64,000 nt of DNA from an uncultured Candidatus Saccharibacteria bacterium. Lineage in GTDB: Bacteria; Patescibacteriota; Minisyncoccia; UBA6257; 2-01-FULL-56-20. Made by a program: the position numbers and the translations under genes. Shown one piece after another: positions 1 to 62,484 of this stretch. The DNA lies in assembly GCA_964361095.1 (NCBI GenBank), contig CAYHZA010000007.1, forward strand, positions 3,010 through 67,009, written 5' to 3'. The notes below the pieces were generated by a model. That model searched no databases. It worked only from the letters and a program-made list of their open reading frames with translations, and was not told the origin of the DNA. Numbering within the stretch: the stretch's first letter is position 1; each line of letters begins with the position of its first letter.

Positions 1-132
1 ATGTAGACGCCAATTGAACCGGGCGTTTTTTTGTTTTATACTGGTGCCAATGGAAAAATAAGATTGGGCGCTTAGCTCTCCGCCAATTGGCGGAGGTAGA
101 ACGTTCCGTTCATTCACCCCGTTAGATTTTAT

Positions 133-207
133 GGGCGGCTAGCTCAGTGGTAGAGCGCTCCGTTCACATCGGAGAGGTCACAGGTTCGATCCCTGTGTCG
201 CCCACCA
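133..207 (+). tRNA. tRNA-Val (anticodon CAC)
   Basis: Cloverleaf GGGCGGC acceptor, GCTCAGTGGTAGAGC D-arm, anticodon loop TTCACAT, GGTTCGATCC T-arm, CCA encoded. Confidence 0.8.
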
Positions 208-725
208 TGGATTTTCATAATACGGTAGATGAATATCTTGATCTTGTTGACGAAAACGATAACATCGTTGGAAAGAAGCGTCGTTCCGAAATTTATGCGG
301 AACATTTGACCAATTTTCGAGTAGTAAATGTTTTTATAATGAATTCTAAAGGCGAAATTTGGATACCTCGTCGGACTGCCAATAAAAGAATTTTTCCTTT
401 ATGCTTAGATATGAGTATGGGCGGTCATGTTGAGAGCGGTGAAACTTATGAAGATGCCTTGGGACGCGAGGCGCAAGAGGAGCTCAATATAGATATCAGC
501 CGCGTATCTCCCCGTTTTTTAGGGCACTTAACGCCACATAAAGATGGAGTTTCGGCGTATATGAAAGTATATGAGATAAAAATGGATGCGGCGCCTGATT
601 ATAATAAAAATGATTTTGCGGAATATTTTTGGTTTACTCCGAGGACTGTGCTTGAGCACATAGAACAAGGCGATCAGGCGAAAGAAGATTTACCGAAGTT
701 AATAAAAATTTTCTATGGCAATTAA
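207..725 (+). CDS. NUDIX family hydrolase
   Basis: ATG immediately after the tRNA; NUDIX box GGHVESGETYEDALGREAQEELNI (GX5EX7REUXEEXGU). Confidence 0.75.
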   Translation: MDFHNTVDEYLDLVDENDNIVGKKRRSEIYAEHLTNFRVVNVFIMNSKGEIWIPRRTANKRIFPLCLDMSMGGHVESGETYEDALGREAQEELNIDISRVSPRFLGHLTPHKDGVSAYMKVYEIKMDAAPDYNKNDFAEYFWFTPRTVLEHIEQGDQAKEDLPKLIKIFYGN

Positions 726-1077
726 CTTACTCAGCAAGAAATGCGTCCCCTGCGAAGGGGGAGTTCCTGCGCTAACCGAAGCGGAGGCGGTGAATTTCCT
801 CGAAGAGCTTTCGGATACATGGAAACTTGAAGGCAACAAGATCGCAGCGGATTTTAAATTCAAGGATTTCAAAGAAGCGATGCGATTCATAAACAACGTC
901 GCCGTCCTTGCCGAAAAAGAGGGGCATCATCCGGATATCACCGTGAATTACAGTAAGGTTCACCTTGTGTTGTGGACACACGCGATAGGCGGACTTTCGG
1001 ACAATGATTTTATTTTGGCGGCAAAAATTGATGAGGTATTTAAGAGTGGGGAATTCGAGCTTTACCCCCACACCTAA
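715..1077 (+). CDS. pterin-4a-carbinolamine dehydratase (PCD/DCoH)
   Basis: EGHHPD motif; about 120 aa, typical PCD length and pattern. Confidence 0.8.
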   Translation: MAINLLSKKCVPCEGGVPALTEAEAVNFLEELSDTWKLEGNKIAADFKFKDFKEAMRFINNVAVLAEKEGHHPDITVNYSKVHLVLWTHAIGGLSDNDFILAAKIDEVFKSGEFELYPHT

Positions 1078-1389
1078 TCGAGATTGCGGAGCGAGCATTT
1101 TGCGCTGTTTTTCTTTCGGGCGTCTATTTGCGTACTTATTTTTTGATGTGTGGGAATGGCTCCGAGAGAAATATTTATCTCGTTTAGGTGTGGGGGTGAA
1201 TAACTTGTTGATATCTCCGTACCTTATTCGTAAAAAATATAAGTAAATAAAGGATTTTTCTCTCGCCCCGCTATCGCGGGGTTTGTTTTTGACGAAACAT
1301 CAAAGTGGCTTAGTATTAATGAGAAGTGGGGAATTGTGGATAACTTTGGGGACAAAGTGCCACTTCTGTGCAGAACTTTTTTATTTACC

Positions 1390-1821
1390 ATGCTATTAGG
1401 CGAATATTCACACAATTTAGATATAAAAGGTCGAGTAGCGATTCCGGCGAAGTTCCGCGATAAAATCGGTGTCGGCGCTATTATCACACGCGGATTGGAT
1501 AACTGTTTATTTGTGTTTGCGAATAAAGAGTGGGAAGTGTTGGCGCAAAAACTCGTCGGGCTTCCGCTTGCGCAAGCGGATTCACGGGCATTTGCTCGGC
1601 TGATGCTCTCGGGCGCTATGGATGTTGATCTTGACGCGCAGGGAAGGATCTTGGTTCCCGACTATCTTAGAAAGTACGCTGATTTGAAAAAACAGGTAAT
1701 TGTTGCCGGCGTTTATAACAGAATCGAGATATGGGACGCGGAACGATGGGAACGATACAAGCAGAAGACGGAGAGCGCCGCGGATGAGATCGCGGAAAAA
1801 TTGGGGGAGCTCGGCATATAG
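1390..1821 (+). CDS. mraZ: transcriptional regulator MraZ
   Basis: MLLGEYSHNLDIKGRVAIPAKFRD N-terminus, duplicated MraZ domain, directly precedes rsmH. Confidence 0.85.
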   Translation: MLLGEYSHNLDIKGRVAIPAKFRDKIGVGAIITRGLDNCLFVFANKEWEVLAQKLVGLPLAQADSRAFARLMLSGAMDVDLDAQGRILVPDYLRKYADLKKQVIVAGVYNRIEIWDAERWERYKQKTESAADEIAEKLGELGI

Positions 1822-1890
1822 CGAATGGCATATCGCTTAAAGCTAATGATTATAAATTTCGCATACTACTTGCTATAAGCTATACGCCCT

Positions 1891-2961: not shown

Positions 2962-3276
2962 ATGACGATGCTACAACCCAACAAAGAAAAACGTTTTATC
3001 GGAATATATATCGCGCTATTTCTCACGCCGCTTTTGAGCGGCGCGTTGTGGCTCGTGTTTCTTTATAATCAAACGGTGAATCTCCAGCACGCGCTCGAGA
3101 AGACACAGGCCGATTTCCTTGCTCTTCAGACGGGAAACGCGGAGCTCCGAGACGAGTTTTTCACACTTTTTGACGGGAAAAACCTAGAGATTTTTGCGAA
3201 AGAGCGGGAATTACGGGAAGAAAAGAACCCTCGTTATTTGGAAATTAAAGGACCATGGGCACTCGTTTCACGGTAA
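2962..3276 (+). CDS. ftsL: FtsL-like cell division protein (single TM, coiled coil)
   Basis: Small bitopic protein between rsmH and ftsI; N-terminal TM helix then heptad-like region. Confidence 0.5.
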   Translation: MTMLQPNKEKRFIGIYIALFLTPLLSGALWLVFLYNQTVNLQHALEKTQADFLALQTGNAELRDEFFTLFDGKNLEIFAKERELREEKNPRYLEIKGPWALVSR

Positions 3277-11044: not shown

Positions 11045-11193
11045 CCCCGTAACATTACTGGGGTTCGCCTCATTCAACCTGTCGATGCAAGCCAATGTAA
11101 ACCACGCTATTTTTCCTTATGCGTCTAGTGGCAATAAAACAAAGGAACATATTGAACGAGGCGGCAGGTTGACGCCCCAGTAATGTTACGGGG
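11045..11193. repeat. 19-bp inverted repeats CCCCGTAACATTACTGGGG / CCCCAGTAATGTTACGGGG flanking about 110 bp
   Basis: Exact reverse complements at 11045-11063 and 11175-11193; the right arm abuts TTGACT. Confidence 0.7.
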
Positions 11194-11223
11194 TTGACTT
11201 TTTCCTCTTACTTCTGCTATACT
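11194..11223 (+). promoter_or_regulatory. sigma-70-like promoter TTGACT-N18-TGcTATACT
   Basis: -35 TTGACT 11194-11199; extended -10 TGcTATACT 11215-11223. Confidence 0.5.
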
Positions 11224-11229
11224 ACTCCC

Positions 11230-11326
11230 GAATGAGTGTGAATAGTCTTTAGAGATTGCATCAATAAAGACTGTCCCATACTTCCTGTTTGTCCCAACCC
11301 CCGCTTCGGCGGGGTTTTGGGTTTTT
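11230..11326 (+). ncRNA. candidate small RNA of about 95 nt with an internal hairpin and an intrinsic terminator
   Basis: Predicted TSS about 11230 from the promoter above; hairpin agtcttta...taaagact; terminator ccccgcttcggcgggg + TTTTGGGTTTTT; no ORF. Confidence 0.35.
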
Positions 11327-13146: not shown

Positions 13147-13223
13147 TTGTCCTCTTTTTTAGATATTTTTCGTAAAAAATTTATCCCTATTATTGAACGT
13201 ATGACGCTATCATGGCGGGGTTT

Positions 13224-13254
13224 ACCCTGTTAGAGACAATACCTCTAACAGGGT
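13224..13254. promoter_or_regulatory. palindromic element ACCCTGTTAGAG-N7-CTCTAACAGGGT abutting TTTACA, upstream of hpf
   Basis: Perfect 12-bp arms; TTTACA at 13255-13260. Confidence 0.6.
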
Positions 13255-13298
13255 TTACAGGAGTGTGTATTTTCGGTTATGCTCTAAGAGATAGAGAA

Positions 13299-13706: not shown

Positions 13707-16700
13707 ATGTTTGATTTTTTGAAGAAAATTTCCGGCGGCCGATCGGTCGCGCGCTATAACGAACGCGCGCGCGAGATTAACGCGCTTGAACCCGAAGTCA
13801 AAAAATTTACCGATGAGGAGTTGCGCGCGGCGAGTCTCGCCTTTAAAGAACATATTCAAAGTAAAGAAAAAACAATCGATGATATTCTTCCGAACGCGTT
13901 CGCGTTCGCGCGTGAGGCGGCGAGGAGAACACTAGGACAGCGCCCTTTCGATGTTCAGCTTGTGGGTGGTATGGTGCTCCATGACGGCGCCGTTTCAGAG
14001 ATGATGACCGGAGAAGGAAAGACATTGACCGCGGTACTCCCCGCGTATTTGAACGCGCTCACGGGAGAGGGAGTGCATGTGGTAACCGTGAATGAATATT
14101 TGGCGCGACGCGATGTCGCGTGGATGGGACAAATTTATCGCGCGCTCGGACTTTCGGTCGCGTGTTTGGTTCCGAACGCCGCGTATCTTTATGACCCCAC
14201 TTACGTGCGCGGACCTCGCGGACAGGACGCAGACCTCGCCGAAGAGAAACTACTTCACGAAGATCTAACTTATAGGATTAGAGGCATACTTTTCTCCATC
14301 AAAAACGTTCTTGGTTTGGGGCACAAAGAGAACATTTATCAAAAAGCCATTGAAAGCGAATTATTGAAGGCAGAAATTGTATTTGAACGAGAAAAAGCGA
14401 TAGATGTGCTATATGATGGTAAAAAAATAGGAACTTACCAACCGGATTTTGTGATAGATGGAAAGGTTATTTTGGAGATAAAAGCCGTGCCATTTATAGG
14501 TAAGATAGAAGAAAAGCAGGTTTGGTCGTATTTAAAAGGATCGCCTTATAGGCTTGCGCTCTTGGCAAATTTTGGGGGTAAGGATATTGAGATTAAAAGG
14601 ATTGTTTATGATACGGCGCGTGATAATGGTCCGCGTGAGTCTGCGTCCAGTCAGCGCGAGTCAGCGTTGCTGGATAAGGAACGGGATAGCACCGGAAATT
14701 TTTTGGTTCAACAGGAATTTCTTCGTCCTGTTTCTCGGCGCGAAGCGTATCTCGCCGATATTACGTATGGCACGAATCATGAGTTCGGTTTTGATTATTT
14801 AAGGGATAATTTGGCATATGGCCTGACCGATCAGGTTCAACGCGGCCATCACTACGGCATTATCGATGAAGTTGACAGTATTTTAATCGACGAAGCGCGA
14901 ACGCCTTTGATTATCGCTGCTCCCGACGCGCAATCGAGCGAATACTACAAAACCTTTGCCCGCGTCGTTACGCATCTTAAAAAAGACGAGGATTACACGG
15001 TTGATGAGAAATTGCGGTCGTCGGCGATTACGGAGGCCGGTATTGAAAAGGTGGAAAAAGTCGTGGGAATCCATAATCTATACGCGCCCGAAAATATGCG
15101 CCTCGTGCATTACCTCGAAGAAAGTCTGCGGGCAATGGCGCTTTTCCATCGCGATAAAGATTATGTCGTAAAAGACGGGGAAGTCATTATTGTCGATGAA
15201 TTTACGGGGCGCATGCTCCATGGACGGCGGTATAACGCCGGTTTGCATCAGGCGATCGAGGCGAAAGAAGGAGTGCTCGTAAAAGAGGAGTCCCGTACGT
15301 ACGCGAAGATTTCCATTCAGAATTACTTCCGGATGTATAAGAAAATTGCGGGAATGACGGGAACAGCCCAAACGTCCGCCGAAGAGTTTCACAAGGTATA
15401 TAGCTTGGAAGTGGTGAGCGTTCCAACGAATCAGCCGATGGCGCGGAAAAATCTTCCCGATTTTATCTTCCGGAATAAAGAGGCGAAATTAAGATCGGTA
15501 GTCGCGGAGGTGAAACAGCGTTTCGAGAAAGGTCAGCCGATCCTCTTGGGAACTCCATCCATAGAAAAAAACGATTTTCTCTCGGCGCATCTTACGCGCG
15601 CCGGAATTCCGCACGAGGTTTTGAACGCGAAGAATAACGAACGCGAGGGAGCGATCGTCGCGCAGGCGGGAAGACTTAAGGCGGTTACGGTGGCGACGAA
15701 CGTCGCCGGCCGTGGCGTGGATATTATTTTGGGCGGCAACCCCTTAAATCCCGAGGAGGCAAAAAAAGTGCGGGATCTCGGCGGGTTGCACGTAATTGGC
15801 ACGGAGCGAAACGAAGCGCGGCGGATAGACAACCAGTTCCGCGGCCGCGCGGGGCGTCAGGGCGATCCCGGTTCTTCGCAGTTTCTTCTCTCGCTCGATG
15901 ACGATCTCCTTCGGATTTTTGGCGGCGATCGCATTAAAAGTTTAATGGAACGGTTTGATCTTCCCGAGGATCAGCCGATAGAGATGGGAATTGTTTCCAA
16001 GGCGGTGGAGCAAGCGCAAGCGAAAGTGGAAGGCGCGAACTTTGATATGCGGAAACACCTTCTTGAATATGATGACGTGTTAAACAAACAGCGCGCGTCC
16101 ATTTACCGCAAGCGACAAGAAATTCTTCAAAGCATGAACCGCGATACGTTGGCGCTTATTATTTTCGAGGCGGCGAGCGGTTATTTCGACGGCGTGGCGC
16201 AGAAGCTTTTCGGCGACGAGGAAACGTTTACGGGAGAAAATACGGACGAGCTTAAAAAGCTGTTTGAAGAATCCGTAATCGCGACTAAGGAACAGCCGTT
16301 GCCCAAAGAGCCGACCCGCGAAAGTATCCGTGAACTTCTTACGAAGCGAAGCGTTGAAGTGACGGTTGATCCGCAGACGTTGAACAGGGTATTGAGCATT
16401 CTTGATTTGCTTTGGATGACGCATCTTGAAGACTTGGAGGCGCTTTCCGAATCAATCGGTCTTCGCGCGTATGGCCAACGGGATCCGCTTGTCGAGTACC
16501 GGCGCGAGGCGCACAACTTGTTCAAAAATTTTTGGGGCAATTTTAACACGTGGATATTCACGAATTTATTTAAACTGGCGAGTTTGCAGGCGGCCTCCGG
16601 TGTGGCAACGGCGAATCCTTCACCGCGTCCGGCGATGGTAGTGGCGGGAAATCAACCAAGTTCCGGAAAAACAGTAGGCAGAAATGATCCGTGCCCGTGC

Positions 16701-16739
16701 GGTTCAGGAAAAAAGTATAAAAAATGTCATGGTAGTTAA
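13707..16739 (+). CDS. secA: preprotein translocase ATPase SecA carrying a large NBD1 insertion
   Basis: Walker A MTGEGKTLTA, ADITYGTNHEFGFDYLRDN, DEVDSILIDEARTPLII, C-terminal zinc finger CPCGSGKKYKKCHG; 1010 aa. Confidence 0.9.
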   Translation: MFDFLKKISGGRSVARYNERAREINALEPEVKKFTDEELRAASLAFKEHIQSKEKTIDDILPNAFAFAREAARRTLGQRPFDVQLVGGMVLHDGAVSEMMTGEGKTLTAVLPAYLNALTGEGVHVVTVNEYLARRDVAWMGQIYRALGLSVACLVPNAAYLYDPTYVRGPRGQDADLAEEKLLHEDLTYRIRGILFSIKNVLGLGHKENIYQKAIESELLKAEIVFEREKAIDVLYDGKKIGTYQPDFVIDGKVILEIKAVPFIGKIEEKQVWSYLKGSPYRLALLANFGGKDIEIKRIVYDTARDNGPRESASSQRESALLDKERDSTGNFLVQQEFLRPVSRREAYLADITYGTNHEFGFDYLRDNLAYGLTDQVQRGHHYGIIDEVDSILIDEARTPLIIAAPDAQSSEYYKTFARVVTHLKKDEDYTVDEKLRSSAITEAGIEKVEKVVGIHNLYAPENMRLVHYLEESLRAMALFHRDKDYVVKDGEVIIVDEFTGRMLHGRRYNAGLHQAIEAKEGVLVKEESRTYAKISIQNYFRMYKKIAGMTGTAQTSAEEFHKVYSLEVVSVPTNQPMARKNLPDFIFRNKEAKLRSVVAEVKQRFEKGQPILLGTPSIEKNDFLSAHLTRAGIPHEVLNAKNNEREGAIVAQAGRLKAVTVATNVAGRGVDIILGGNPLNPEEAKKVRDLGGLHVIGTERNEARRIDNQFRGRAGRQGDPGSSQFLLSLDDDLLRIFGGDRIKSLMERFDLPEDQPIEMGIVSKAVEQAQAKVEGANFDMRKHLLEYDDVLNKQRASIYRKRQEILQSMNRDTLALIIFEAASGYFDGVAQKLFGDEETFTGENTDELKKLFEESVIATKEQPLPKEPTRESIRELLTKRSVEVTVDPQTLNRVLSILDLLWMTHLEDLEALSESIGLRAYGQRDPLVEYRREAHNLFKNFWGNFNTWIFTNLFKLASLQAASGVATANPSPRPAMVVAGNQPSSGKTVGRNDPCPCGSGKKYKKCHGS
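14262..14610 (+). other. in-frame AT-rich insertion in secA encoding a GxxExxY-family (PD-(D/E)xK-like) domain
   Basis: Sharp GC drop against flanking secA sequence; encoded LGHKENIYQKAIESEL...DFVIDGKVILEIKAV...LLANFGG matches the GxxExxY small-protein family end to end. Confidence 0.6.
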
Positions 16740-17342: not shown

Positions 17343-17780
17343 GTGTGGTATACTGCAATCAATATGAAGATCGGCTTCGGCATATTCTCAATTGCCATGC
17401 TTGTCCTTCTTAGCTTTATCGCTATCGGGGTTTTCGGTTTTATGCCGGTTAACCACGAGAATCAGCATACCGGCTGTATCGCCGCGCTTTCCGGTCAGGC
17501 GGCTTGCCCCAAAGATGATCCTTTCGGATTTATCAATTTCCACGCCAATGCCTTGAGGGGATTTTCGAACGGGTTGGTGAGCGGTTTCGCGGCTCTGGCT
17601 TTTCTTTCGTTGTTGTTTATTAGTTTAGCCGTTCTTACGGTTTCTTTGTCTTACGCGTTCTCGTTTTTCGCGTTTCGCGAATACAAAGAGCGTTTGGCAG
17701 AGAGGATCTTTCTTGGCACGCAATCCTATATTCGCTGGCTTACTCTCCGTGAACGTGGAGATGCCGCCCTTTTAGCATAG
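17343..17780 (+). CDS. hypothetical membrane protein
   Basis: Several predicted TM helices. Confidence 0.4.
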   Translation: MWYTAINMKIGFGIFSIAMLVLLSFIAIGVFGFMPVNHENQHTGCIAALSGQAACPKDDPFGFINFHANALRGFSNGLVSGFAALAFLSLLFISLAVLTVSLSYAFSFFAFREYKERLAERIFLGTQSYIRWLTLRERGDAALLA

Positions 17781-17884
17781 GTTTCCCGCAGTAGACCTTT
17801 TTTCTGGTCTCATGGATTTTTGGTTGCGGGAAACTTTTGTTCAAAGGGCGGTTTTTATTTGTGTTCTTAAATTAAATTATCTCA

Positions 17885-19181: not shown

Positions 19182-19718
19182 ATGGCTACCGAAGAAGAAA
19201 AATTTTTTGATCTTGTCGCAAAGATCCAGGAGCTCAAAAAATCAAAAGACTTTGATCTGTCGATGGAGGAGGATCTAAGCATCGCCGTGATGAACCTCGT
19301 AAGCCTTGAAGAGCATTTCTTCTTTACGGCTTCAAAGACGGGGAAAGACGAGTACTTTGATCTTATGGGCGAAGCGCGGAATATACGCAAGGCGATGCTC
19401 GCGAAGATGATCGACGCGCACGAAGGGGAGACGTGGTGTATCTCGAAACATCTTCTTGCCGCGACGATGCGACTTATCGAGGTCGGTACAAAATTGCAGT
19501 CCGACGGTAAACGCGAAGAGGCAAAGGATGTATTCGCGAATGCCTATCGAGTTTATTCGCTCTTTTGGGCGCTGCGGTTGAAGCTCGTTGATACGAAGGG
19601 AATTAAAAAGATTTCCGATGGAAAACTGAATATTCACGAGGAGGCGAAATCGGAAAAACCATGGTCGGTCGAAGATATCGTCAACAAACTCGTGGATTGT
19701 TGTGATGAATCCCGTTAG
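19182..19718 (+). CDS. hypothetical protein
   Basis: 178-aa ORF, no motif recognised. Confidence 0.4.
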   Translation: MATEEEKFFDLVAKIQELKKSKDFDLSMEEDLSIAVMNLVSLEEHFFFTASKTGKDEYFDLMGEARNIRKAMLAKMIDAHEGETWCISKHLLAATMRLIEVGTKLQSDGKREEAKDVFANAYRVYSLFWALRLKLVDTKGIKKISDGKLNIHEEAKSEKPWSVEDIVNKLVDCCDESR

Positions 19719-19829
19719 AGAAAACCAATCCCATAAGTCGCACTACGAACCATAAAAACAGGCATATGTATTCCATAAAGATCTTGCCGGGAAACAATGG
19801 AAGCATAAGTGCCTCCTGCCTCTAACGGG

Positions 19830-20192
19830 ATGAATAAAATAATTTTCGTATCCTTGCTTGCGCTTATCGCTCTTTTGAGTATTTGGCTTTTTTGGCCGGT
19901 GCCGCCGCATCCGGAACTCAATCAATTCGCGCAGTGCTTGAGCGAAAAGGGTGTCACTATGTATGGAGCCGACTGGTGCCCCCATTGTCAAAACGAGAAA
20001 AGAGCTTTTGGAGATTCCTTCCGTTTTGTGCCATACGTTGAGTGCCCCAAGGAACCAAATCGGTGTATTGCGGCAGGCATCAACGGTTATCCAACGTGGG
20101 TGTTCGCGGATGGAACACGGTTTGAGGGAGAGCAAGGAATCCAAAAATTGTCGCAAAAAAGCGGTTGTCCGCTTGGAGAATCAAAAAATTAA
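19830..20192 (+). CDS. thioredoxin-fold protein (CPHC active site), membrane-anchored
   Basis: YGADWCPHCQNEK thioredoxin/DsbA-like motif; N-terminal TM. Confidence 0.65.
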   Translation: MNKIIFVSLLALIALLSIWLFWPVPPHPELNQFAQCLSEKGVTMYGADWCPHCQNEKRAFGDSFRFVPYVECPKEPNRCIAAGINGYPTWVFADGTRFEGEQGIQKLSQKSGCPLGESKN

Positions 20193-29030: not shown

Positions 29031-29342
29031 TTGTGCCATACTGTAAGCATGACTGACGTTGCAGAAATTCAAAAAGTTATCAGGCCGCTTCTTGAGCGCA
29101 ATGATGTTGTTTTTGCGGGGGTTTTCGGTTCGTTTGCGCGCGGAGAAGCGAATGAGGCGAGTGACATCGACCTCTTGGTTCGGTTCCGAAGTCCCAAAAG
29201 CCTTCTTGAGATTGTGCGATTAGAACGCGAACTCACTGCGCTTACCGGACGGAAGGTGGAAGTGGTAACTGAAAAATTTCTCCATCCCTACATTGCGGGA
29301 TCGGTGCGTCGCGATCTCCATCCTCTCTATGGAAAAGGATAA
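29031..29342 (+). CDS. MNT-type nucleotidyltransferase (antitoxin of a HepT/MNT module)
   Basis: GSFARGEANEASDIDLLV minimal nucleotidyltransferase motif. Confidence 0.8.
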   Translation: MCHTVSMTDVAEIQKVIRPLLERNDVVFAGVFGSFARGEANEASDIDLLVRFRSPKSLLEIVRLERELTALTGRKVEVVTEKFLHPYIAGSVRRDLHPLYGKG

Positions 29343-29661
29343 GGTATACGTTCGGCACATACTTGATTCCATCTCTATAATAGAGGGCTTTATCGCGGGA
29401 ATAACGTACGAAAAGTTTGCGGAAAATAAGTTGCTTCAAAATGGCGTTATTCGAGAACTCGAGGTAATCGGTGAGGCATCAAAGAAGCTTTCCGACGAAT
29501 TTAAGGAGTCACTTCCGGGAATCGAATGGAAAAGCATCGCGGGAATGCGCGATAAGCTCATTCATGACTACTTTAGCGTTGATTTAGAAGCGGTGTGGAA
29601 AACCGCCACAAGCGACCTCCCGCCCCTCAAGGAGATTTTGTCTCAAAGATCTGATGGTTAG
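29329..29661 (+). CDS. HepT-like toxin (DUF86, HEPN)
   Basis: RDKLIHDY, an Rx4-6H HEPN motif; 14-nt overlap with the MNT gene. Confidence 0.8.
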   Translation: MEKDKVYVRHILDSISIIEGFIAGITYEKFAENKLLQNGVIRELEVIGEASKKLSDEFKESLPGIEWKSIAGMRDKLIHDYFSVDLEAVWKTATSDLPPLKEILSQRSDG

Positions 29662-30250: not shown

Positions 30251-31254
30251 TGAAACTCGCATTTTTTGAAATCGAGGGATGGGAGGAAAAAATTATCCAC
30301 GAAGCGTTTTCTGATGCGGATGTTTTCGTGACAAAAGATAAGGTAACAGCGCTCTGCTTGCCCGACACGCGAGATTTTGAGATTCTTTCGGTATTCGTGG
30401 ACTCGAGAGTTGATAAGGCGGTTTTGGATTGCTTCCCGAACCTGAAGTTCATCGCCGCGCGCTCCACCGGCTATGATCATATAGATGTCGCCGAGTGCAA
30501 GGCGCGTGGAATCTCCATTGCCTATGTGCCCGGCTATGGGGATAATACGGTTGCGGAGTTTGCCTTCGGCCTCATTCTCGCGCTTACGAGGAAAATTTAT
30601 CAGGGCATTGATCAGATAAAAGAAATAGGTTCGTTTTCACTTGCGGGGCTCCGTGGCACGGATCTTAAGGGAAAAACCATCGGCATTGTCGGTACGGGAA
30701 GGATCGGAAGGGAGATGGCGAAGATCGCGCGCGGTTTTTCGATGAAGATCGTCGGGTATGACCCGTTTCCTGATGAGAATTTTGCCCGTGAATCAGGTCT
30801 TGAATATCTAAGCTTGGAGGGTCTTCTGGGTATCGCCGATATTATTACGCTACACTGTCCCTATAATCAAAATACGCACCATTTAATACATAACGGCAAT
30901 ATTCATCTTGTAAAAAAGGGCGCGTATTTGGTGAACACCGCACGCGGCGCGATCGTGGAAACTGAAGCGATTGTCGGGGCGCTCAAAGAGGGCATTCTTG
31001 CGGGCTACGGCGCCGACGTACTCGAAGAGGAGGGGGAAACCAAAGACGAGCTTACCATTTTGGCGCTTGGCCACCCGCATGAAGAGGAGCTCAAGACCAT
31101 GCTCCGGAACCATATTTTGATGAAAATGCCCAATGTCTTGATCACGCCGCACAATGCTTTTAACTCGCAGGAAGCGCTTGAACGGATTTTGCATACGACG
31201 ATTGAGAATATCCGTGGCTTTATGGAAGGAAAACCTGTGAATCTTGTTCAATGA
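30250..31254 (+). CDS. D-isomer-specific 2-hydroxyacid dehydrogenase (D-lactate/phosphoglycerate dehydrogenase family)
   Basis: NAD Rossmann motif GIVGTGRIGREMAK; catalytic-domain pattern. Confidence 0.8.
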   Translation: MKLAFFEIEGWEEKIIHEAFSDADVFVTKDKVTALCLPDTRDFEILSVFVDSRVDKAVLDCFPNLKFIAARSTGYDHIDVAECKARGISIAYVPGYGDNTVAEFAFGLILALTRKIYQGIDQIKEIGSFSLAGLRGTDLKGKTIGIVGTGRIGREMAKIARGFSMKIVGYDPFPDENFARESGLEYLSLEGLLGIADIITLHCPYNQNTHHLIHNGNIHLVKKGAYLVNTARGAIVETEAIVGALKEGILAGYGADVLEEEGETKDELTILALGHPHEEELKTMLRNHILMKMPNVLITPHNAFNSQEALERILHTTIENIRGFMEGKPVNLVQ

Positions 31255-32462
31255 GAGTTAAGGATATTACTGTTCGAGAAATTTTCGATTCACGAAGTGG
31301 GCCGACGATTGAGGTGCGCGGCAGGAATCCATTGATTTCGGCGTCGGTGCCTTCGGGGAAAAGCAGAGGAAACCGCGAGGCAAAGGTTTTTTCGTTTCGA
31401 GAAGCTTTTCTGGGCATAAAAACGATCGTAAAAAATCTCGGTGGGAGGAATTTCCAATCGGTACGCGACTTGGACGAGGCACTTCTTCGTTTGGATGGTA
31501 CGGCGAACAAATCGAAACTTGGCGGCAACGTAACTCTTGCGGTTTCGATGTTCGGCGCGCGGATGCTTGCCGCGGAGCGTGGCAAGGAAGTGTGGCAAGT
31601 ATTGCGCGAGGAATTCTTTAAAGGCGCGAAAGACGTTCCGCCGCTTATTTTCTCGAATCTTATAAACGGAGGGGCGCACGCGGCAAATAATCTTGATATT
31701 CAGGAGTATATGGTTGTTGTTCACCCCGTTAGAACGAGCTCTAATGGGGTAAAATCCGGGAAATCGGTTGCGGAAGATATACAGGCGCTCATCCGTTTTT
31801 ATCGGGAGCTCGGAGATCTTTTTAAAAAAACGCGGAAGATACAAAATATTCCAATCGGCGATGAGGGCGGGTATTCCCTGAATTTCAAAAGCAACTTCGA
31901 ACCAATCACGGTCTTGGAAAAGCTCGTTAAAAAATTTCATCTCGAAAGCCGTTTTGGTTTGGCGCTCGACGTTGCGGCGAGCGGATTTTTAAAAAATGGA
32001 GAATATTATTTTAGCGGTAAACGGTTTTCTTCCGAACAGCTCGCCGCGGAATATCTGTGTTATTTCAAGAAGTCAAAATTTCTTTTCTCCGTTGAGGATC
32101 CCTTTGCGGAACGTGACGCGCAGGGATTCGCTCTTTTGCGGGAGAAATTGCCGGATGCGTGGGTGGTGGGAGATGATTTGACGACTACGAATCCAACAAC
32201 GATTCAAAAATACGCGCACGAGGGAGTAATAAATGCCGTGATCATTAAGCCGAATCAGATCGGAACGATAAGCGAGGCTTGTAAGGCTATTGCGGTTGCG
32301 AAAAAACATGGATTAAAGACCATTGTTTCGCACCGGTCGGGCGAAACGGAAGATTCTTTTATTACCCATCTTGCAAAAGCCGGAGGCGCGGATGGAGTAA
32401 AAATTGGCGCGCCGATCCGGGAACGGATCTCGAAATTTAACGAACTTGCGCGAATTTACTAA
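31251..32462 (+). CDS. eno: enolase
   Basis: ITVREIFDSRSGPTIEV N-terminus; SHRSGETEDSFITHLAKA; C-terminal IGAPIRERISKFNELARI. Confidence 0.85.
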   Translation: MRVKDITVREIFDSRSGPTIEVRGRNPLISASVPSGKSRGNREAKVFSFREAFLGIKTIVKNLGGRNFQSVRDLDEALLRLDGTANKSKLGGNVTLAVSMFGARMLAAERGKEVWQVLREEFFKGAKDVPPLIFSNLINGGAHAANNLDIQEYMVVVHPVRTSSNGVKSGKSVAEDIQALIRFYRELGDLFKKTRKIQNIPIGDEGGYSLNFKSNFEPITVLEKLVKKFHLESRFGLALDVAASGFLKNGEYYFSGKRFSSEQLAAEYLCYFKKSKFLFSVEDPFAERDAQGFALLREKLPDAWVVGDDLTTTNPTTIQKYAHEGVINAVIIKPNQIGTISEACKAIAVAKKHGLKTIVSHRSGETEDSFITHLAKAGGADGVKIGAPIRERISKFNELARIY

Positions 32463-38751: not shown

Positions 38752-38812
38752 TATGAGACGAGCGTTTAGAATGCTATATTGAGCATAGCTTTTTAAACAC
38801 TCGTCTCATACC
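38752..38812. repeat. 15-bp inverted repeat atgagacgagcgttt / aaacactcgtctcat with a nested atgct...agcat hairpin
   Basis: Reverse-complement arms with one mismatch, 31-nt spacer. Confidence 0.55.
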
Positions 38813-39820: not shown

Positions 39821-39836
39821 TTTACCCCGTTAGATC
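39821..39836. promoter_or_regulatory. half-site TTTACCCCGTTAGATC downstream of the extended -10 TGTATAAT (39801-39808)
   Basis: Matches the left arm of the recurrent palindromic element; upstream of tgt. Confidence 0.4.
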
Positions 39837-39906
39837 TTGAAAGTTTTAGCCTTCAGACCAGAGGCGAAAAGAGTTATTCAAGAGAGAAAAATAAAAACCA
39901 CAGAGC

Positions 39907-41109
39907 ATGGATCTAATGGGGTTCGAAATTATTACAAAAGACGGCGAAGCCCGGCTTGGCCGATTGTCTACGCCGCATGGCGTAGTGGAAACTCCCAGTT
40001 ATGTTGTCGTGGGAACTGACGCGCATGTACGCTGTTTAGAACCCGCTGATATTCCCGAGACAAAAACGCAGATGATAATTTCGAACACCTATCATTTGTG
40101 GCGAGATTTAGGAGAAGAAGGTCTCGCAACCTATCCCGGTCTTCACGCGGAAATGGGGTGGGAGGGACCCATAATGACCGATAGCGGGGGATTTCAAGTT
40201 TTTAGCATGGGATATGGGCGAGAGTTTGGGGTTGGAAAGGTAATTCCCAGGGAAGCTCCGAAGTCGATGTTATCAGTCGGCTCTCCGATCGAAGCGTCGG
40301 AGCGCTCTAGGGAAAATCTCGTGCGTGTTACGGATTCGGGTGTTTATTTTATGGAAGGCGGTGAAGAGTTTTATCTTGACCCCGAGCTCTCCATGAGGAT
40401 TCAGGAACAGCTTGGCGCCGATATTATATTCGCCTTCGATGAACCGTCATCGCCCCTTCACGATTATGCGTATACCAAAAAAGCAATGGAGCGAACCCAC
40501 GCGTGGGCTTTGCGCTCGCTCGAAGCGAAAACATCTTCGCAGTTGATATACGGCATTGTCCAAGGCGGGCTCTTCGAAGATTTGCGGCTCGAGAGCGCTC
40601 GTTTTATAAACGCGCTACCATTTGACGGTTTTGCTATCGGAGGGGCCTTCGGGAGTTCGTTCGGTTCGGGGAAAGGAGACACGTTTGAGGCGCTCCGGTG
40701 GGTAACCCCTCTTCTTCCCGAAGGAAAGCCCCGCCATCTCTTGGGCATTGGGAAAATCGAGGATCTTTTTGCTGCCGTTCAACTTGGAATTGACACCTTT
40801 GATTGTGTTATCCCGACGCGAGAGGCCCGACATGGTTCGTTATGGACGGCAAAGGGACGATTTGACGTTGTTCGCGGCCGCCACCAGAACGATAATTCTC
40901 CGCTTGCGGAAGAGTGTGGCTGTTCCGCGTGCGCCGAAGGCGTGCGGAAAGCCGACCTCTACGCGCTCTTTAAAGCAAAAGACCCGCAGGCGGGGCGTTT
41001 TGCTACGATCCACAATGTGTATTTTTTTAACGATTTAATGGAACAGATACGAAATGCGATTCGCGAAGGAAGATTCTTGAATTTCAAAAATTCTTATCTT
41101 TCAAAATAA
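39907..41109 (+). CDS. tgt: queuine tRNA-ribosyltransferase
   Basis: TDSGGFQVFS active-site region; C-terminal Zn site CGCSAC...H; 400 aa. Confidence 0.85.
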   Translation: MDLMGFEIITKDGEARLGRLSTPHGVVETPSYVVVGTDAHVRCLEPADIPETKTQMIISNTYHLWRDLGEEGLATYPGLHAEMGWEGPIMTDSGGFQVFSMGYGREFGVGKVIPREAPKSMLSVGSPIEASERSRENLVRVTDSGVYFMEGGEEFYLDPELSMRIQEQLGADIIFAFDEPSSPLHDYAYTKKAMERTHAWALRSLEAKTSSQLIYGIVQGGLFEDLRLESARFINALPFDGFAIGGAFGSSFGSGKGDTFEALRWVTPLLPEGKPRHLLGIGKIEDLFAAVQLGIDTFDCVIPTREARHGSLWTAKGRFDVVRGRHQNDNSPLAEECGCSACAEGVRKADLYALFKAKDPQAGRFATIHNVYFFNDLMEQIRNAIREGRFLNFKNSYLSK

Positions 41110-41129: not shown

Positions 41130-41200
41130 TTTACCCCGTTAAAGATAAGATAATACAATTATCTGTCTTGGGGCATCGATGGTCTCTCAGGGGGTTTACA
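41130..41200. promoter_or_regulatory. split element TTTACCCCGTTAAAG ... CTCTCAGGGGGTTTACA, with candidate -10 boxes 14-16 nt downstream
   Basis: Left and right half-sites 40 nt apart; candidate -10 GATAAT (41215-41220) or TAATGT (41217-41222). Confidence 0.4.
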
Positions 41201-42167: not shown

Positions 42168-42196
42168 ATTATAGTCCAGGACAGGGAAATAGTCAA
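42168..42196 (-). promoter_or_regulatory. minus-strand promoter TTGACT-N17-TATAAT for the 3D-domain gene
   Basis: Reverse complement of 42168-42196 reads TTGACTatttccctgtcctggacTATAAT; the -35 abuts the palindromic element. Confidence 0.55.
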
Positions 42197-42226
42197 CCCC
42201 GTTAGAGGCAACGCCTTTAATGGGGT
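42196..42226. promoter_or_regulatory. palindromic element ACCCCGTTAGAG-N7-CTTTAATGGGGT between divergent genes
   Basis: Same family as 13224, 44813 and 62339. Confidence 0.55.
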
Positions 42227-42280
42227 CAAGAAGCCGAGGAAATATGGCAAAAAACCTTTAAAAGCGTACAATAGTAAGAT

Positions 42281-44589: not shown

Positions 44590-44812
44590 ATGTAGTATTT
44601 ATTTTTTGACCTTTTTGTTTTTATCTGTTAATTGTTTGCAGGGTATTAAAGACCCAACCGACCTTTGTCTGTGATATATACGCTATTCACGGGGGTATTG
44701 TTACGTCACTTTTTCACCCCGCCTCCATAAGGGACCTTTCATAGTATAATGCAAGATATTGAATATAGAAAACTCGGCTTCTGTGGGACCGCTTTCCCCT
44801 CATAGGGTTGAC

Positions 44813-44847
44813 CCCGTTTAGAGACAACGCCTCTAACGGGGTTGACA
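44813..44847 (+). promoter_or_regulatory. palindromic element CCCCGTTTAGAG-N7-CTCTAACGGGG abutting TTGACA, upstream of the ECF sigma gene
   Basis: TTGAC flanks both arms; TTGACA at 44842-44847; no matching -10 found at N16-19. Confidence 0.5.
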
Positions 44848-48521: not shown

Positions 48522-48566
48522 ATGTTCAAACTCGTTTCAAAATTCAAGCCAGACGGCGACCCCGCA
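48522..48566 (+). pseudogene. diverged fragment of the uvrB 5' end (MFKLVSKFKPDGDP), 90 nt upstream of the intact uvrB
   Basis: 12 of 14 residues match uvrB residues 6-19 (FKLVSKFRPSGDQ) but with GC-rich synonymous codons; loses similarity after GDP. Confidence 0.4.
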
Positions 48567-48635
48567 ACAAACCGAGCGTTTTGTTTTGCACGCTTCCGTA
48601 TGGAACGGATACCTACCGCTCGGTTAGTGACGGGG
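48560..48635. repeat. split palindromic element CCCCGCAACAAACCGAG ... CTCGGTTAGTGACGGGG with an internal hairpin
   Basis: 14 of 17 reverse-complement match; 42-nt spacer containing ttccgt-atgg-aacgga. Confidence 0.45.
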
Positions 48636-54708: not shown

Positions 54709-54749
54709 TAAGAGCTCAAATTTTTTGTTCGCCGATTTTGCTGAATTGA

Positions 54750-54800
54750 ACCCCATTACAACCCAGAAATTCCGGCCGTGAGGCCGGATTGTAACGGGGT
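54750..54800. promoter_or_regulatory. palindromic element ACCCCATTACAA ... TTGTAACGGGGT with an internal ccggcc-gtga-ggccgg hairpin
   Basis: 11 of 12 reverse-complement arms, 27-nt spacer; upstream of the gene at 54861. Confidence 0.45.
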
Positions 54801-54860
54801 GAATGTATGATATATACTGATGAGTAGTATTATTTTTGAATTCTTCCGAGGAGGAACGCC

Positions 54861-59500: not shown

Positions 59501-59529
59501 GAGCTTGGATTTTATGATACACTAAGACT

Positions 59530-60308: not shown

Positions 60309-60310
60309 CT

Positions 60311-60544: not shown

Positions 60545-60695
60545 TAAAAAACTACGCGAAGATCGGGGGCCGTCAGAGCCGATCTGTATACCGAACGCCC
60601 TCGGGTTTTCGTCATCACTCTATGGTTCAAAACACACTATATGAAAAAACTGAGAGGGATGATAAAATAATGTTTATTTGTTATACATTGATACT

Positions 60696-61544
60696 ATGAA
60701 AAATAAATACGCAACTCTTGTTTTCGCGGTGGTTTTGGGCGTGGCGCTTATCGGTGTTTTGATCTACGCGCAGGTGATGAGAAAAGTTTCTGTTTCTCAG
60801 AAATATGCGGATGAGATTGTAGTTCAAAATCCGGAAGAAGATCAAACAGTCAAAAGTCCGCTTGAAGTGCGCGGCAAAGCAAGAGGATCGTGGTTCTTCG
60901 AAGCAAATATTCGCGTGGATATTCTTGACGCGAATAATAAGGTGATAACCCAAACAAACGGAATGGCGGAAGGCGAATGGATGACGGCTGATTTCGTGCC
61001 TTTCAAATCTACCGTCGTTTTTAAAACACCCGATACAAAAACAGGTATTTTGAGAATTAAGAATGATAATCCAAGCGGTCTTCCGGAGAATGAAAAATCA
61101 TTTGATGTTCCAATCGTTTTCGGAGAAGAAGAGACGGCGTCAATGGACGATCCCCGCACGATGAAGCTTAATATCTTTTTTGGGAGTTCAAAGTTTGATC
61201 CGCAAGGGGAGCGATGCGATATGACTTATTCGATTTCACGCTCTATTCCGAAGACAACATCCGTGGCAAAAACTTCGTTTCGTGAGCTTCTTCTTGGTCC
61301 GACCGCCCTTGAAAAAAAGGAAGGTTATTTTACGAGTATTCCCGATGGCGTAAAGTTGCAGGGGATCTCGGTTGAAAACGGAATCGCAAAAATTGATTTT
61401 AGTAAGGAACTTGATCTGGTCGGAGGATCTTGCCGCGTGACGGCTATTCGATCTCAAATCACCGAAACATTAAAACAATTTCCGACGATTCAAAATGTGG
61501 TTATTTCCATAGGCGGAAGAACAGAAGACATTCTCCAGCCATAA
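60696..61544 (+). CDS. Gmad2 (Ig-like) + GerMN domain lipoprotein or secreted protein
   Basis: N-terminal signal-anchor; SPLEVRGKARGSWFFEANIRVDILD (Gmad2-like); C-terminal ...FRELLLGPTALEKKEGYFTSIP...GIAKIDFSKEL (GerMN-like). Confidence 0.55.
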   Translation: MKNKYATLVFAVVLGVALIGVLIYAQVMRKVSVSQKYADEIVVQNPEEDQTVKSPLEVRGKARGSWFFEANIRVDILDANNKVITQTNGMAEGEWMTADFVPFKSTVVFKTPDTKTGILRIKNDNPSGLPENEKSFDVPIVFGEEETASMDDPRTMKLNIFFGSSKFDPQGERCDMTYSISRSIPKTTSVAKTSFRELLLGPTALEKKEGYFTSIPDGVKLQGISVENGIAKIDFSKELDLVGGSCRVTAIRSQITETLKQFPTIQNVVISIGGRTEDILQP

Positions 61545-61611
61545 TCTTTGCACGTGGGGCGCCGGAACGGATAAATTTGACGTATAAATAGTTTTGATGT
61601 ATAATCTAAGG

Positions 61612-62319
61612 ATGAAAAAAGTTGTCCTGCTTTTTGCCGCGCTTGGCTTGCTTCTATTTTTTGGGGTTTCAACCGCAAACCAAGAAGTCGGTGTGAGTCG
61701 GGAAGAAACTACACATTTCACGCTTACTTCGTTTCTTTATGACGGTGGGCGCTCGGTTTCTTTTGAAGTTTTCGCGGATGGCATTATGCCACGAGGAGCG
61801 CGAAAGGCGTTTCTTTCGGGTTCACTCGATCTGCATTCTGGTTTCGGATTTACCAAAGATTCTATTTATTTTAGTCGGCTTGCATTGCCCGATGGCGCCC
61901 TCCAAATTCGGGCAGACGGAAAGAAAATTTTTTTAGACGTTGATCTTTCGGAAATTCAGGATTTTCGGGCGTTTCGGCGCGCAAACGGCGGAACACTCTC
62001 CGAAATTACGGACCCGTCTGTTTTCCCTTCCATGATTGTTAGCTTTGTATGGGAAGTAGGAAAGCCGATTCCAACCTATGGCGGGAAAATCCAGTCCTTC
62101 TATGCGCGTCCGGACGGAGAGTGGACGCGGAGCGTTATCACGAACCTCAAACGTAATGTTCAAGGAACGGGAGAAATTTTCGGATTCCGAAGTTCCGCGG
62201 CAAGAATACGAAATTTTGAGTATACCGAAGAAGGAAGTGAAGTTTCCGTTTCTTCAGACGGCATTTTTCCTCCGGTCATTTCTTTTCCTAAAGACCCCAC
62301 GCTTCCCGAGGAACCGTAA
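61612..62319 (+). CDS. hypothetical secreted protein
   Basis: Signal peptide MKKVVLLFAALGLLLFFGVSTA. Confidence 0.45.
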   Translation: MKKVVLLFAALGLLLFFGVSTANQEVGVSREETTHFTLTSFLYDGGRSVSFEVFADGIMPRGARKAFLSGSLDLHSGFGFTKDSIYFSRLALPDGALQIRADGKKIFLDVDLSEIQDFRAFRRANGGTLSEITDPSVFPSMIVSFVWEVGKPIPTYGGKIQSFYARPDGEWTRSVITNLKRNVQGTGEIFGFRSSAARIRNFEYTEEGSEVSVSSDGIFPPVISFPKDPTLPEEP

Positions 62320-62338
62320 TATCAGAGAGAGGAGTTTA

Positions 62339-62398
62339 CCCCGTGAGAAGCATAGCTTCTCACGGGGGCTTGACATGTTGCATTTTTAAAGGTACAAT
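62339..62398 (+). promoter_or_regulatory. palindromic element CCCCGTGAGAAGC-ata-GCTTCTCACGGGG abutting the consensus promoter TTGACA-N17-TACAAT
   Basis: Perfect 13-bp arms; -35 62370-62375, -10 62393-62398; drives the GC-rich gene at 62485. Confidence 0.6.
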
Positions 62399-62484
62399 CT
62401 CCCCGTTGTACCTTGATTTAATTTTGGTCAGTTTTCCCTCCTAACACCCTTCCCCCCTCTTAAAAGAGGAGAAAGGAATAGAAC

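Follow-up and report, generated by a model that had tools for sequence, protein, structure and literature searches.

The window, which is the whole 64-kb stretch of DNA analysed here, was found to contain a tRNA-Val gene, a Pterin_4a gene, a probable hpf, a thioredoxin-like ORF, an enolase gene, tgt, an ECF sigma gene and uvrB, and 13 copies of a short palindromic element were counted along it (Table 1); up to 6 copies in 8 kb were found elsewhere. With up to 2 mismatches allowed, ACCCCGTTAGAG gave 17 matches on both strands of the window against 3.53 ± 1.74 in shuffled sequences (maximum 9), and AACGGGGT gave 9 matches against 2.0 expected. The recurrent palindrome reported in the first-pass annotation is thus real, and each of the sites listed there was found again in its place. 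The list was incomplete by two copies, namely 31724-31749 and the variant-arm copy 1065-1196. The description of all sites as intergenic did not hold, since copy 31724-31749 lies in frame within the essential enolase gene, and the tgt start as well as the stop codons of ORF 715-1077 and ORF 19182-19718 lie inside elements. No earlier description of these elements was found in the literature.

Table 1. Copies of the palindromic element in the 64-kb window, with their flanks and neighbouring features.
Position	Copy	Flanks	Context
117..126	Solo left arm CCCCGTTAGA; truncated copy, since no right arm was found	TTCA before	6 nt upstream of tRNA-Val (133-207)
1065..1196	132-bp foldback copy; variant 22-nt arms CCCCCACACCTAATCGAGATTG, 20/22 paired	TTTA / TGAA	Left arm contains stop codon of Pterin_4a gene (715-1077)
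11045..11193	149-bp copy; 20-nt perfect arms CCCCGTAACATTACTGGGGT		Right tip followed by TTGACT-18-TATACT
13225..13253	29-bp copy CCCTGTTAGAG-ACAATAC-CTCTAACAGGG; same C-to-T variant in both arms	Exact TTTA duplication, 13221-13224 and 13254-13257	Upstream of probable hpf start
19710..19830	121-bp copy; TCCC...GGGA tips	Exact TGAA duplication, 19706-19709 and 19831-19834	Inserted at former stop/start overlap; provides stop of ORF 19182-19718; last base is first base of ATG of thioredoxin-like ORF
31724..31749	26-bp copy		In enolase gene (31251-32462); element + 4 bp = 30 bp, in frame: HPVRTSSNGV
39825..39921	97-bp copy	TTTA / TTCG	Contains both candidate tgt start codons (39907, 39916)
41134..41194	61-bp copy; diverged right arm CTCTCAGGGGG	Exact TTTA duplication, 41130-41133 and 41195-41198	
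42197..42225	29-bp copy	Exact TCAA duplication, 42193-42196 and 42226-42229	Between divergent genes; on minus strand duplication opens TTGACT-17-TATAAT
44812..44841	30-bp copy; 1-nt left-arm bulge	Exact TTGA duplication, 44808-44811 and 44842-44845	58 nt upstream of ECF sigma gene; TTGACA at 44842-44847
48560..48635	76-bp diverged copy; arms CCCCGCAACAAACCGAGCG / CGCTCGGTTAGTGACGGGG, 84% paired; membership of the family less certain	No duplication left	Upstream of uvrB
54751..54799	49-bp copy CCCCATTACAA...TTGTAACGGGG	Exact TGAA duplication, 54747-54750 and 54800-54803	
62339..62367	29-bp copy CCCCGTGAGAAGC-ATA-GCTTCTCACGGGG; same T-to-G variant in both arms	TTTA / GCTT	TTGACA-17-TACAAT begins 2 nt past tip

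The unit was found to contain the conserved 10-nt tip CCCCGTTAGA, followed by a variable inner stem and loop and by the inverted tip TCTAACGGGG at the other end. Its length was 26-149 bp in the window; over the family as a whole it was mostly 26-33 bp, with 29-33 bp being typical, and the elements were small, non-coding and present in many copies, as in MITEs. The arms consisted of the tip lengthened by 1-4 variable but mutually complementary bases; the stem extended right to the tip, and perfect complementarity counted from the tip was usually 10-14 bp. The centre joining the arms was usually 3-9 nt and sometimes up to ~130 bp of unrelated sequence (overall range 1 to ~130 bp). The two arms were found to vary together, with 17 compensated double changes beside 51 single changes, where ~0.3 doubles are expected. 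As single strands the hairpins were stable (z-scores -3.3 to -9.1), and their G.T wobbles were found without sense-strand bias (6 vs 5). No T tract was present and no element was flagged by the terminator scan, though ordinary terminators occur elsewhere in the window, and no Rfam family matched the elements. One copy was found inserted in the loop of another with a TAAA duplication (locus L049).

The elements lie between direct repeats of 4 bp, in most cases T-W-W-A, within the target consensus R-T-W-W-A-Y. The unit had been drawn as beginning with ACCCC; the conserved unit begins with CCCC, and the neighbouring A and T belong to the 4-bp direct repeat. In an unbiased sample of 94 copies from other genomes, identical 4-bp flanks were found in 40, where 9.0 were expected from 2000 permutations, the highest of which gave 18, whereas the other registers (2, 3, 5 and 6 bp) gave 0-3 matches. 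Exact duplications at 6 window copies compare with 0.03 expected in shuffled sequences, and the central dinucleotide was duplicated in 74/125 copies of a pattern-selected set against 22 expected. Duplications departing from the consensus were also exact (TATG, TGGG, TGAG, CTCA and CTTG), and among the 28 cases with an outer position departing from T/A, the two sides agreed in 12. Just ~40-60% of the copies have kept an exact duplication, and the self-complementary duplications TTAA and TATA were unexpectedly rare, for which a simple model gives no explanation.

Two cases of presence and absence were found. The enolase gene has a 74%-identical homologue without exactly the 30 bp made up of element and 4 bp, as after a clean in-frame insertion. 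The DNA of loci L125 and L126 was 89% identical as far as the insertion point, with the right end cut off by the contig end, and a TTGACA hexamer was found filled in L125 (GCATTTGA joined to CCCCGTTAGAAG) and empty in L126 (GCATTTGACAATGG), the latter containing the empty TTGA. No copy was found in 21 kb of a syntenic relative (L150), as for a lineage-specific set of insertions. Among the 241 copies in all sequences examined, 16 fall in long ORFs, and their length plus 4 was divisible by 3 in 14 of these 16 against 76/190 outside ORFs; copies persist within genes when element and duplication together make a multiple of three. The in-gene copies add 9-11 residues, for example NPVR..SNGV.

Phages and no fewer than 15 phyla of bacteria and archaea were found to carry the same ends, the sources including Patescibacteria, Omnitrophota, Nitrospirota, Planctomycetota, one Aenigmatarchaeota MAG and phage contigs. 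Identical 29-bp variants were common to Omnitrophota, Nitrospiraceae and phage contigs. Most of these genomes are MAGs, some taxonomic assignments of which may be binning errors, but binning error is made less likely as a general explanation by the long contigs and by one complete genome. Velamenicoccus archaeovorus LiM is an example of a complete genome with many copies.

Promoter-like sites touching the tip were found in the window at 42196(-) (TTGACT-17-TATAAT, 11/12), 11194 (TTGACT-18-TATACT, 10/12) and 13254 (TTTACA-18-TATGCT, 9/12), while the TTGACA at 44842 is missing a good -10. The earlier statement that the right arm ends exactly at a -35 hexamer in at least four copies was borne out at 11194 and 42196(-) and failed at 62370, where the hexamer lies 2 nt from the tip. 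Across all loci such sites were ~30-fold enriched at the tip (8/476 flanks vs 0.05% at control offsets). This enrichment, the palindromic sequence and the three or four window copies touching promoter-like sites, including the copy that precedes the ECF sigma gene, are what an operator of a dimeric transcription factor centred just upstream of the -35 boxes of a regulon would give. An operator is however scarcely credible and was rejected, since the arm spacing is not fixed (3 to ~130 bp), copies lie within coding sequence, a promoter-like site was found at just 8 of the 476 flanks, copies carry target duplications, phages and at least 15 phyla share the same sequence, and the copies are not conserved at orthologous sites (empty L126 against L125, the syntenic L150 and the homologous enolases). 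What was read as a "-35 box" is one copy of the duplicated target (TTGA or TTTA) together with the bases that follow it. The extended motif nAACGGGGTTGACA of the first-pass annotation was indeed seen, though it does not stand as one motif, being the element tip followed by the duplicated TTGA target and CA. The association with -35 boxes arises from target choice, because TTGA and TTTA are the first four bases of TTGACA and TTTACA. Elements insert into -35-like hexamers and regenerate them, and because the duplication rebuilds the hexamer beside the tip such insertions are tolerated. The effects on the host are by-products: DNA upstream of promoters is displaced, stop or start codons are newly supplied, and peptides of 9-11 residues are inserted.

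The alternative to an operator in that annotation was a REP-like family, of which the dispersed and apparently selfish palindrome was upheld and the REP kind was not, the copies having 4-bp duplications and not being strictly extragenic. In REP/REPIN systems single-stranded hairpins are spread without target duplication by a domesticated IS200/IS605-like tyrosine (Y1, RAYT) transposase, and relatives of IS200/IS605 are probably common in all of the phyla concerned. The size of ~30 bp, the hairpin form, the high copy number mostly between genes and the compensated arm variants expected of a hairpin substrate agree with such an origin, which is nevertheless unlikely in view of the exact 4-bp direct duplications of variable sequence. 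The same inner variant was also found with different flanks, which means that no internal guide sequence dictates the flank; a conserved unpaired 5′ tetranucleotide of the GTAG-like kind was lacking, the flanking 4-mers being variable and direct rather than inverted repeats, and no Y1 (RAYT) gene was found in the 69-kb source contig. Hairpins selected by the host for structure (terminators, mRNA stabilisers, gyrase or nucleoid-protein sites) would be alike across phyla by function and not by mobility, and the single-strand stability, the compensated arm changes and the conservation of copies among 85-92% identical phage contigs accord with this; it is very unlikely given the lack of T tracts, terminator calls and an Rfam match, the wobbles without strand bias, and the target duplications and empty sites. 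If an enzyme of the serine-recombinase kind integrated small circles, the junction TCTAACGGGGT-NN-ACCCCGTTAGA would be a palindromic attachment site, recombining with T-NN-A targets at a 2-bp crossover. The joined ends would then form a perfect inverted repeat around the central dinucleotide, and self-complementary central dinucleotides were strongly under-represented, as at sites needing polarity. Such integration is highly improbable, because both outer positions of the 4-mer are co-duplicated off T/A (exact TATG, TGGG and CTCA occur), the central dinucleotide varies within one variant, which a fixed crossover would forbid, and a 26-bp circle is physically implausible. An integron attC site was also considered and rejected: GTTAGA inside the CCCC tip is the reverse of the attC layout, in which R''(RYYYAAC)...R'(GTTRRRY) are outermost, and the copies are dispersed among housekeeping genes with duplications and are not arrayed at cassettes.

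The target duplication of the palindromes points to a foldback miniature transposon and away from the RAYT/REP kind; probably they are non-autonomous, MITE-like elements moved in trans by a transposase with a 4-bp staggered cut. This enzyme would be of the DDE type, its gene lying in another part of the genome or on a passing element. No transposase was found in the 69-kb contig; an autonomous element with the same ends was likewise found neither there nor among 120 genome loci and 17 viral loci, and no neighbouring gene recurred across the 120 loci. Within ~1.1 Mb of element-bearing loci, neither an IS1380-like ORF nor an unpaired end pair with matching duplication at IS distance was found. 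Since compensation of arm variants is far in excess of what independent decay would give, the substrate that the enzyme recognises is probably a hairpin or cruciform of the two arms, or else the arms may be homogenised. An unusual mechanism would be needed because 26-33 bp is too short to synapse two ends as ordinary duplex DNA. More speculatively, these might be the smallest prokaryotic transposable elements so far, hairpins of 26-33 bp handled folded (as hairpin or cruciform) by the putative transposase, and not as two separate duplex ends, and spread horizontally through many bacterial phyla, DPANN archaea and their phages in subsurface habitats, a reading that is less likely than not. The enzyme acting on such a folded substrate might belong to a new family or be related, as a prokaryotic member, to piggyBac/IS1380. 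If precise excision still goes on at TTAA and TATA sites, this could account for the rarity of such duplications, the visible copies being mainly stranded.

Among known systems, the bacterial MITEs Correia/NEMIS of Neisseria are likewise non-coding, contain terminal inverted repeats and target-site duplications, are mobilised in trans, and occur as many dispersed copies mostly beside genes, where they may lie at existing promoters, form new ones or change the ends of genes. They differ in having ~100-155 bp, the present elements at 26-33 bp being three to five times smaller with essentially no interior, in duplicating TA instead of the 4-bp T-W-W-A, and in being confined to one genus, whereas the present ends were found in many phyla, in an archaeal MAG and in phages; no insertion sequence matching the present elements was found. 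The Rickettsia palindromic elements (RPE) are also selfish palindromes in frame within protein genes, tolerated as extra peptide and with a putative mobilising enzyme, but they are ~100-150 bp long and found in Rickettsia only, whereas the present elements add 9-11 residues, show clear duplications of 4 bp and occur in a very wide range of hosts. REP/REPIN sequences are similarly dispersed hairpin-forming repeats of 20-40 bp whose compensated stems suggest recognition of structure, but they have a conserved 5′ tetranucleotide, no target duplication, a lineage-specific range and a REP-flanked RAYT gene, none of which was seen for the present elements. Eukaryotic Foldback (FB) transposons consist likewise of nearly nothing but two inverted arms with target duplications at the flanks, though they are hundreds to thousands of bp long, with internally repetitive arms. 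In their CC(C) tips and their AT-rich duplication of 4 bp the present elements recall IS1380/piggyBac, as a resemblance and not a demonstrated link: CCCC tips and a T-W-W-A duplication were found here where those families have such tips and a 4-5 bp AT-rich duplication. PiggyBac duplicates TTAA and its end reads TTAA followed by CCCTAGAAAG, whereas TTAA is rare among the duplications of the present elements. In three checked IS1380 members with readable flanks the duplication was 5 bp, and beyond the CC tip no end similarity was found to four plasmid-borne IS1380 members or ~50 ISKpn23-like metagenomic copies, a sample that is small and from other taxa. The CC(C) tips of IS1380 are alike, reading CCTAGA in ISEcp1, CCTGAAT in both IS1678 and an L. 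plantarum IS, and CCCGCATTCCCC in ISKpn23-like elements, as is the short AT-rich duplication, which was 4 bp (TAAG) in one ISKpn23-like copy, and ISEcp1-like transposases are on record from very distant hosts, like the wide range of the present elements.

The window runs from base 3010 to base 67009 of a 69,295-bp metagenomic contig, obtained from 0.1-um-filtered Hainich groundwater (ENA ERZ1292643). Its genes were found almost all on the + strand with positive GC skew throughout, and its enolase is labelled 'Patescibacteria group bacterium' at NCBI. The 12-mer ACCCCGTTAGAG was found 17 times in the window at up to 2 mismatches, against 3.5 +/- 1.7 times in shuffles. Every palindrome site listed in the first-pass annotation was confirmed, and two further copies brought the total to 13 per 64 kb window. 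Single-stranded DNA folding of the copies gave clean hairpins with z-scores of -3.3 to -9.1, and no Rfam family matched the window, 18 loci or the region around 11045-11193. The window was also found to contain two inverted repeats outside the palindrome family, an MNT (NTP_transf_2)/HepT toxin-antitoxin pair amid glycolysis genes, and a SecA gene with a PDDEXK_3 (PF13366) nuclease-like domain inserted inside its SecA_DEAD motor domain. Between the terminator that follows rplL and the region of tRNA-Val, a non-coding stretch of ~260 bp was found to be GC-rich and apparently structured.

Coordinates of palindrome copies and of neighbouring features
Feature	Sequence	Position	Remark
Copies with exact duplications	window	13225, 19710, 41134, 42197, 44812, 54751
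Copy beyond the first-pass list	window	31724-31749
Copy beyond the first-pass list	window	1065-1196	different inner arms
Copy at a former stop/start overlap	window	19710-19830	121 bp
Copy at tgt	window	39825-39921
ORF ended by the 121-bp copy	window	19182-19718
ORF ended by the copy at 1065-1196	window	715-1077
Tip-abutting promoter-like sites	window	42196(-), 11194, 13254
Possible small transcript	window	11194-11322	hairpin at 11299-11314
Inverted repeat outside the family	window	38752-38810	26-nt arms, 88%, 7-nt loop
Inverted repeat outside the family	window	17764-17851	27-nt arms, 85%, 34-nt spacer
SecA gene	window	13707-16739
MNT/HepT pair	window	29049-29661
GC-rich non-coding DNA	L145	2780-3040	just upstream of window base 1
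Enolase gene with insertions	L126	1485-2741
Copies between direct AATCTGCG words	L027	3239-3270, 4798-4829
Copy between direct AATCTGCG words	L076	3870-3899
Copies between direct AATCTGCG words	L102	1849-1881, 3546-3578
Copy between direct AATCTGCG words	L111	7109-7142
Copy between direct AATCTGCG words	L084	7639-7670
29-bp phage variant	L137	2682-2710	IMG/VR; flanks TTCA/TGAA
29-bp phage variant	L138	5498-5526	IMG/VR; flanks TTCA/TGAA
29-bp phage variant	L141	305-333	IMG/VR; flanks TTCA/TGAA

One genome per species (GTDB) was scanned for ACCCCGTTAGA-N5-13-TCTAACGGGGT, and the matches, from at least 120 loci, were aligned. The aligned elements contained invariant ends, CCCCGTTAGA and TCTAACGGGG, then 1-4 bases inward that were variable yet mutually complementary, and a centre of 3-9 nt. 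The sequence just outside the tips was found to form direct repeats and was not palindromic. In 74 of 125 pattern-selected copies (22 expected) the two bases beside the forced A/T were the same left and right, and among 94 other copies in the same loci, independent of the selecting pattern, identical 4-bp flanks were found in 40, against 9.0 by permutation (maximum 18; 2000 permutations). Alternative registers of 2, 3, 5 or 6 bp gave just 0-3 matches. Duplications other than T-W-W-A were also exact (TATG, TGGG, TGAG, CTCA and CTTG), and where the outer flank position was other than T/A the left and right flanks departed alike in 12 of 28 cases. The exact 4-bp flanks, the exact atypical 4-mers and the co-departing outer positions thus favour genuine target duplication by a 4-bp staggered cut rather than a crossover core of 2 bp. 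Six window copies contained exact duplications, four of which were recovered by a gapless scan of the window (0.03 in shuffles). The self-complementary 4-mers TTAA and TATA made up only 2 of 44 exact duplications over all loci, where ~16 were expected, despite being frequent among the T-N-N-A words of the same DNA. Direct 8-9 nt words, AATCTGCG(T) or its complement, bracketed the element in some loci of Omnitrophota, Nitrospirae and WOR-3, which hints at a composite target preference or at a repeat unit larger than the element itself.

The arm variants comprised 17 compensated doubles and 51 single changes, whereas independent decay predicts ~0.3 doubles; on this excess, either the folded form would be the substrate or the arms would have been homogenised. 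The G.T wobbles showed no sense-strand bias, so no RNA-level selection was seen.

Mobility was indicated by comparison of occupied sites with related DNA. The window enolase reads ...EYMVVV-HPVRTSSNGV-KSGKS..., whereas homologues at 57-75% identity were found without the HPVRTSSNGV residues, and at the DNA level it contained exactly 30 bp more than a 74%-identical homologue, that is, the 26-bp element plus 4. Two related contigs, L125 and L126 (89% DNA identity), align until base 2663 of L125, beyond which L125 continues as CCCCGTTAGAAG... and L126 as uninterrupted GCATTTGACAATGG; they are the filled and the empty state of one site at a TTGACA hexamer. In locus L049 a diverged copy was nested within the TAAA of another copy's loop, with TAAA on either side. 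Only 16 of 241 copies over all sequences lay within long ORFs, and length plus 4 was divisible by three in 14 of these 16 versus 76 of 190 elsewhere (binomial P ~1e-4 to 1e-5 by our own arithmetic); the peptides so added include NPVRKxxSNGV. The 21-kb contig L150, with partly conserved gene order and an enolase 61% identical, contained no copies. The enolases P0003-P0005 were found to contain a 4-residue insertion (TRAGS/ARVGS) at the loop that holds the palindrome in the window enolase and, elsewhere, a second, length-variable, low-complexity insertion (SLPAKAFAGKPAGSSAKDLSTAEALRGGGG); other insertional repeats may, to judge from these proteins, be active in this lineage.

Several window genes have been altered at their ends. 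The 121-bp copy lies in a former stop/start overlap (GATGAATAA), where the preceding ORF is now ended by a TAG in the left arm and the start ATG of an ORF with weak similarity to thioredoxin is rebuilt from the last base of the copy and the duplicated TGAA. Both candidate start codons of tgt fall in the right part of a copy, and the copy with different inner arms holds the stop of another ORF in its left arm.

The target consensus was found to be R-T-W-W-A-Y, which is why TTGA+C and TTTA+C are frequent right flanks, and a promoter-like -35/-10 pair began exactly at the tip in 8 of 476 flanks versus 0.05% at control offsets. The hexamer predates the insertion, since the empty site in L126 already has it. 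The elements therefore insert into -35-like hexamers, the hexamer then being restored by the 4-bp duplication. The first-pass annotation had proposed, as one of two readings, a dimeric-factor operator upstream of -35; the copies are no such operator, and both operator features tested were found to be absent from them. Its other reading, a REP-like intergenic family, was retained in part: the copies are a dispersed palindrome, but mobile and MITE-like, and two defining REP/RAYT features did not hold for them. An attC site, a DNA uptake sequence, a LexA box and a terminator were also considered and dropped, the layout, distribution or duplications of the copies being incompatible with them, and none of the copies scored as a terminator. 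Right after the 149-bp element a promoter-like TTGACT-18-TATACT was found, with a terminator-like hairpin and T run ~75 nt on; this may give a small transcript of ~90 nt, for which Rfam gave no match.

The copies are non-autonomous, because no recurring gene, contig transposase, full-length parent or common interior was found. Clustering of the ORFs within 2.5 kb at 120 loci gave no recurrent gene beyond response regulators, TPR and DHH/CCA enzymes, and no transposase was found among the Pfam annotations of the complete 69-kb contig or by a Pfam scan of its unannotated ORFs. Across ~1.1 Mb of loci there was neither a pair of unpaired ends 161-5000 bp apart that had matching duplications nor long DNA common to different loci, and the long forms contained no conserved interior save one Omnitrophota pair. 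No ISfinder family other than IS1380 is known to combine CC ends with a duplication of 4-5 bp; the insertion junction of eukaryotic piggyBac is TTAA|CCC.... The IS1380-type ends read (ISEcp1, IS1678, an L. plantarum IS and ISKpn23) contained CC/CCC tips as in the palindrome, whereas the remainder of the ends was unlike it, and members with readable flanks showed 5-bp duplications, in one case 4 bp, against 4 bp in the palindrome. All loci were searched by tblastn and with an HMM built from 4 sequences, and no IS1380 homologue was found near copies; the ISEcp1 protein search gave only matches at least 83% identical and nothing more distant, and a metagenome scan for IS1380 relatives gave ISKpn23-like copies alone, with ends CCCGCATTCCCC. 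The IS1380/piggyBac link is accordingly a lead only. A Labilibaculum MAG and an ANME-2 archaeon MAG are the recorded sources of the transposases P0177 and P0182, which share 86% identity with ISEcp1 of Enterobacteriaceae; this reflects either very wide transfer of this IS or contamination/mis-binning.

Among the matches listed, the palindrome was found in many Patescibacteria classes, Omnitrophota including the complete genome of Velamenicoccus archaeovorus, Nitrospirota, Planctomycetota, 'Deltaproteobacteria', Gamma- and Betaproteobacteria, Elusimicrobia, Cloacimonadota, WOR-3, Nitrospinota, Ignavibacteriales and Bacillota, and in an Aenigmatarchaeota MAG with 4 copies per 6.4 kb. The only cultured Rhizobium match was imperfect and without duplication, and is therefore probably chance. 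Seventeen IMG/VR contigs contained matches; in one group of three related phage contigs, 85-92% identical and with portal and capsid genes, the same variant occupied the same place. The identical 29-bp variant CCCCGTTAGATAGTAAACATCTAACGGGG was common to these contigs and to Omnitrophota and Nitrospiraceae MAGs. Besides portal and capsid proteins, the palindrome-bearing phage contigs contained one Mu-type transposase, whose end rules are unrelated to the palindrome. In another phage group (L128, L130, L132, L134 and L140) the flanks were inverted, AAGC...GCTT, not direct, and the hairpin was longer and without duplication; this palindrome may differ in origin or role. A published study infers that groundwater Omnitrophota and Patescibacteria exchange genes (PMC12455944). 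Variants identical between distant phyla and phages provide a marker for DNA movement among Patescibacteria, Omnitrophota, Nitrospirota, DPANN archaea and their viruses.

For annotation, a false regulon is removed, and an explanation is given for odd gene starts and ends, for some contig breaks and for the short NPVR..SNGV insertions that proteins of ultra-small bacteria from groundwater contain. Insertion into -35 hexamers with their regeneration is a simple route of persistence in streamlined genomes. A ~30-bp element with clean target duplication is close to the physical limit for transposition, and recognition of a folded substrate would therefore be implied. No earlier description of the palindrome was found in the full-text literature searched, the exact sequence included, which falls short of proving novelty. 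The elements behave as MITEs do and showed every MITE feature tested save a cognate autonomous element, but compared with described MITEs the palindrome is smaller (~30 bp), is without any interior and has a host range across phyla and domains.
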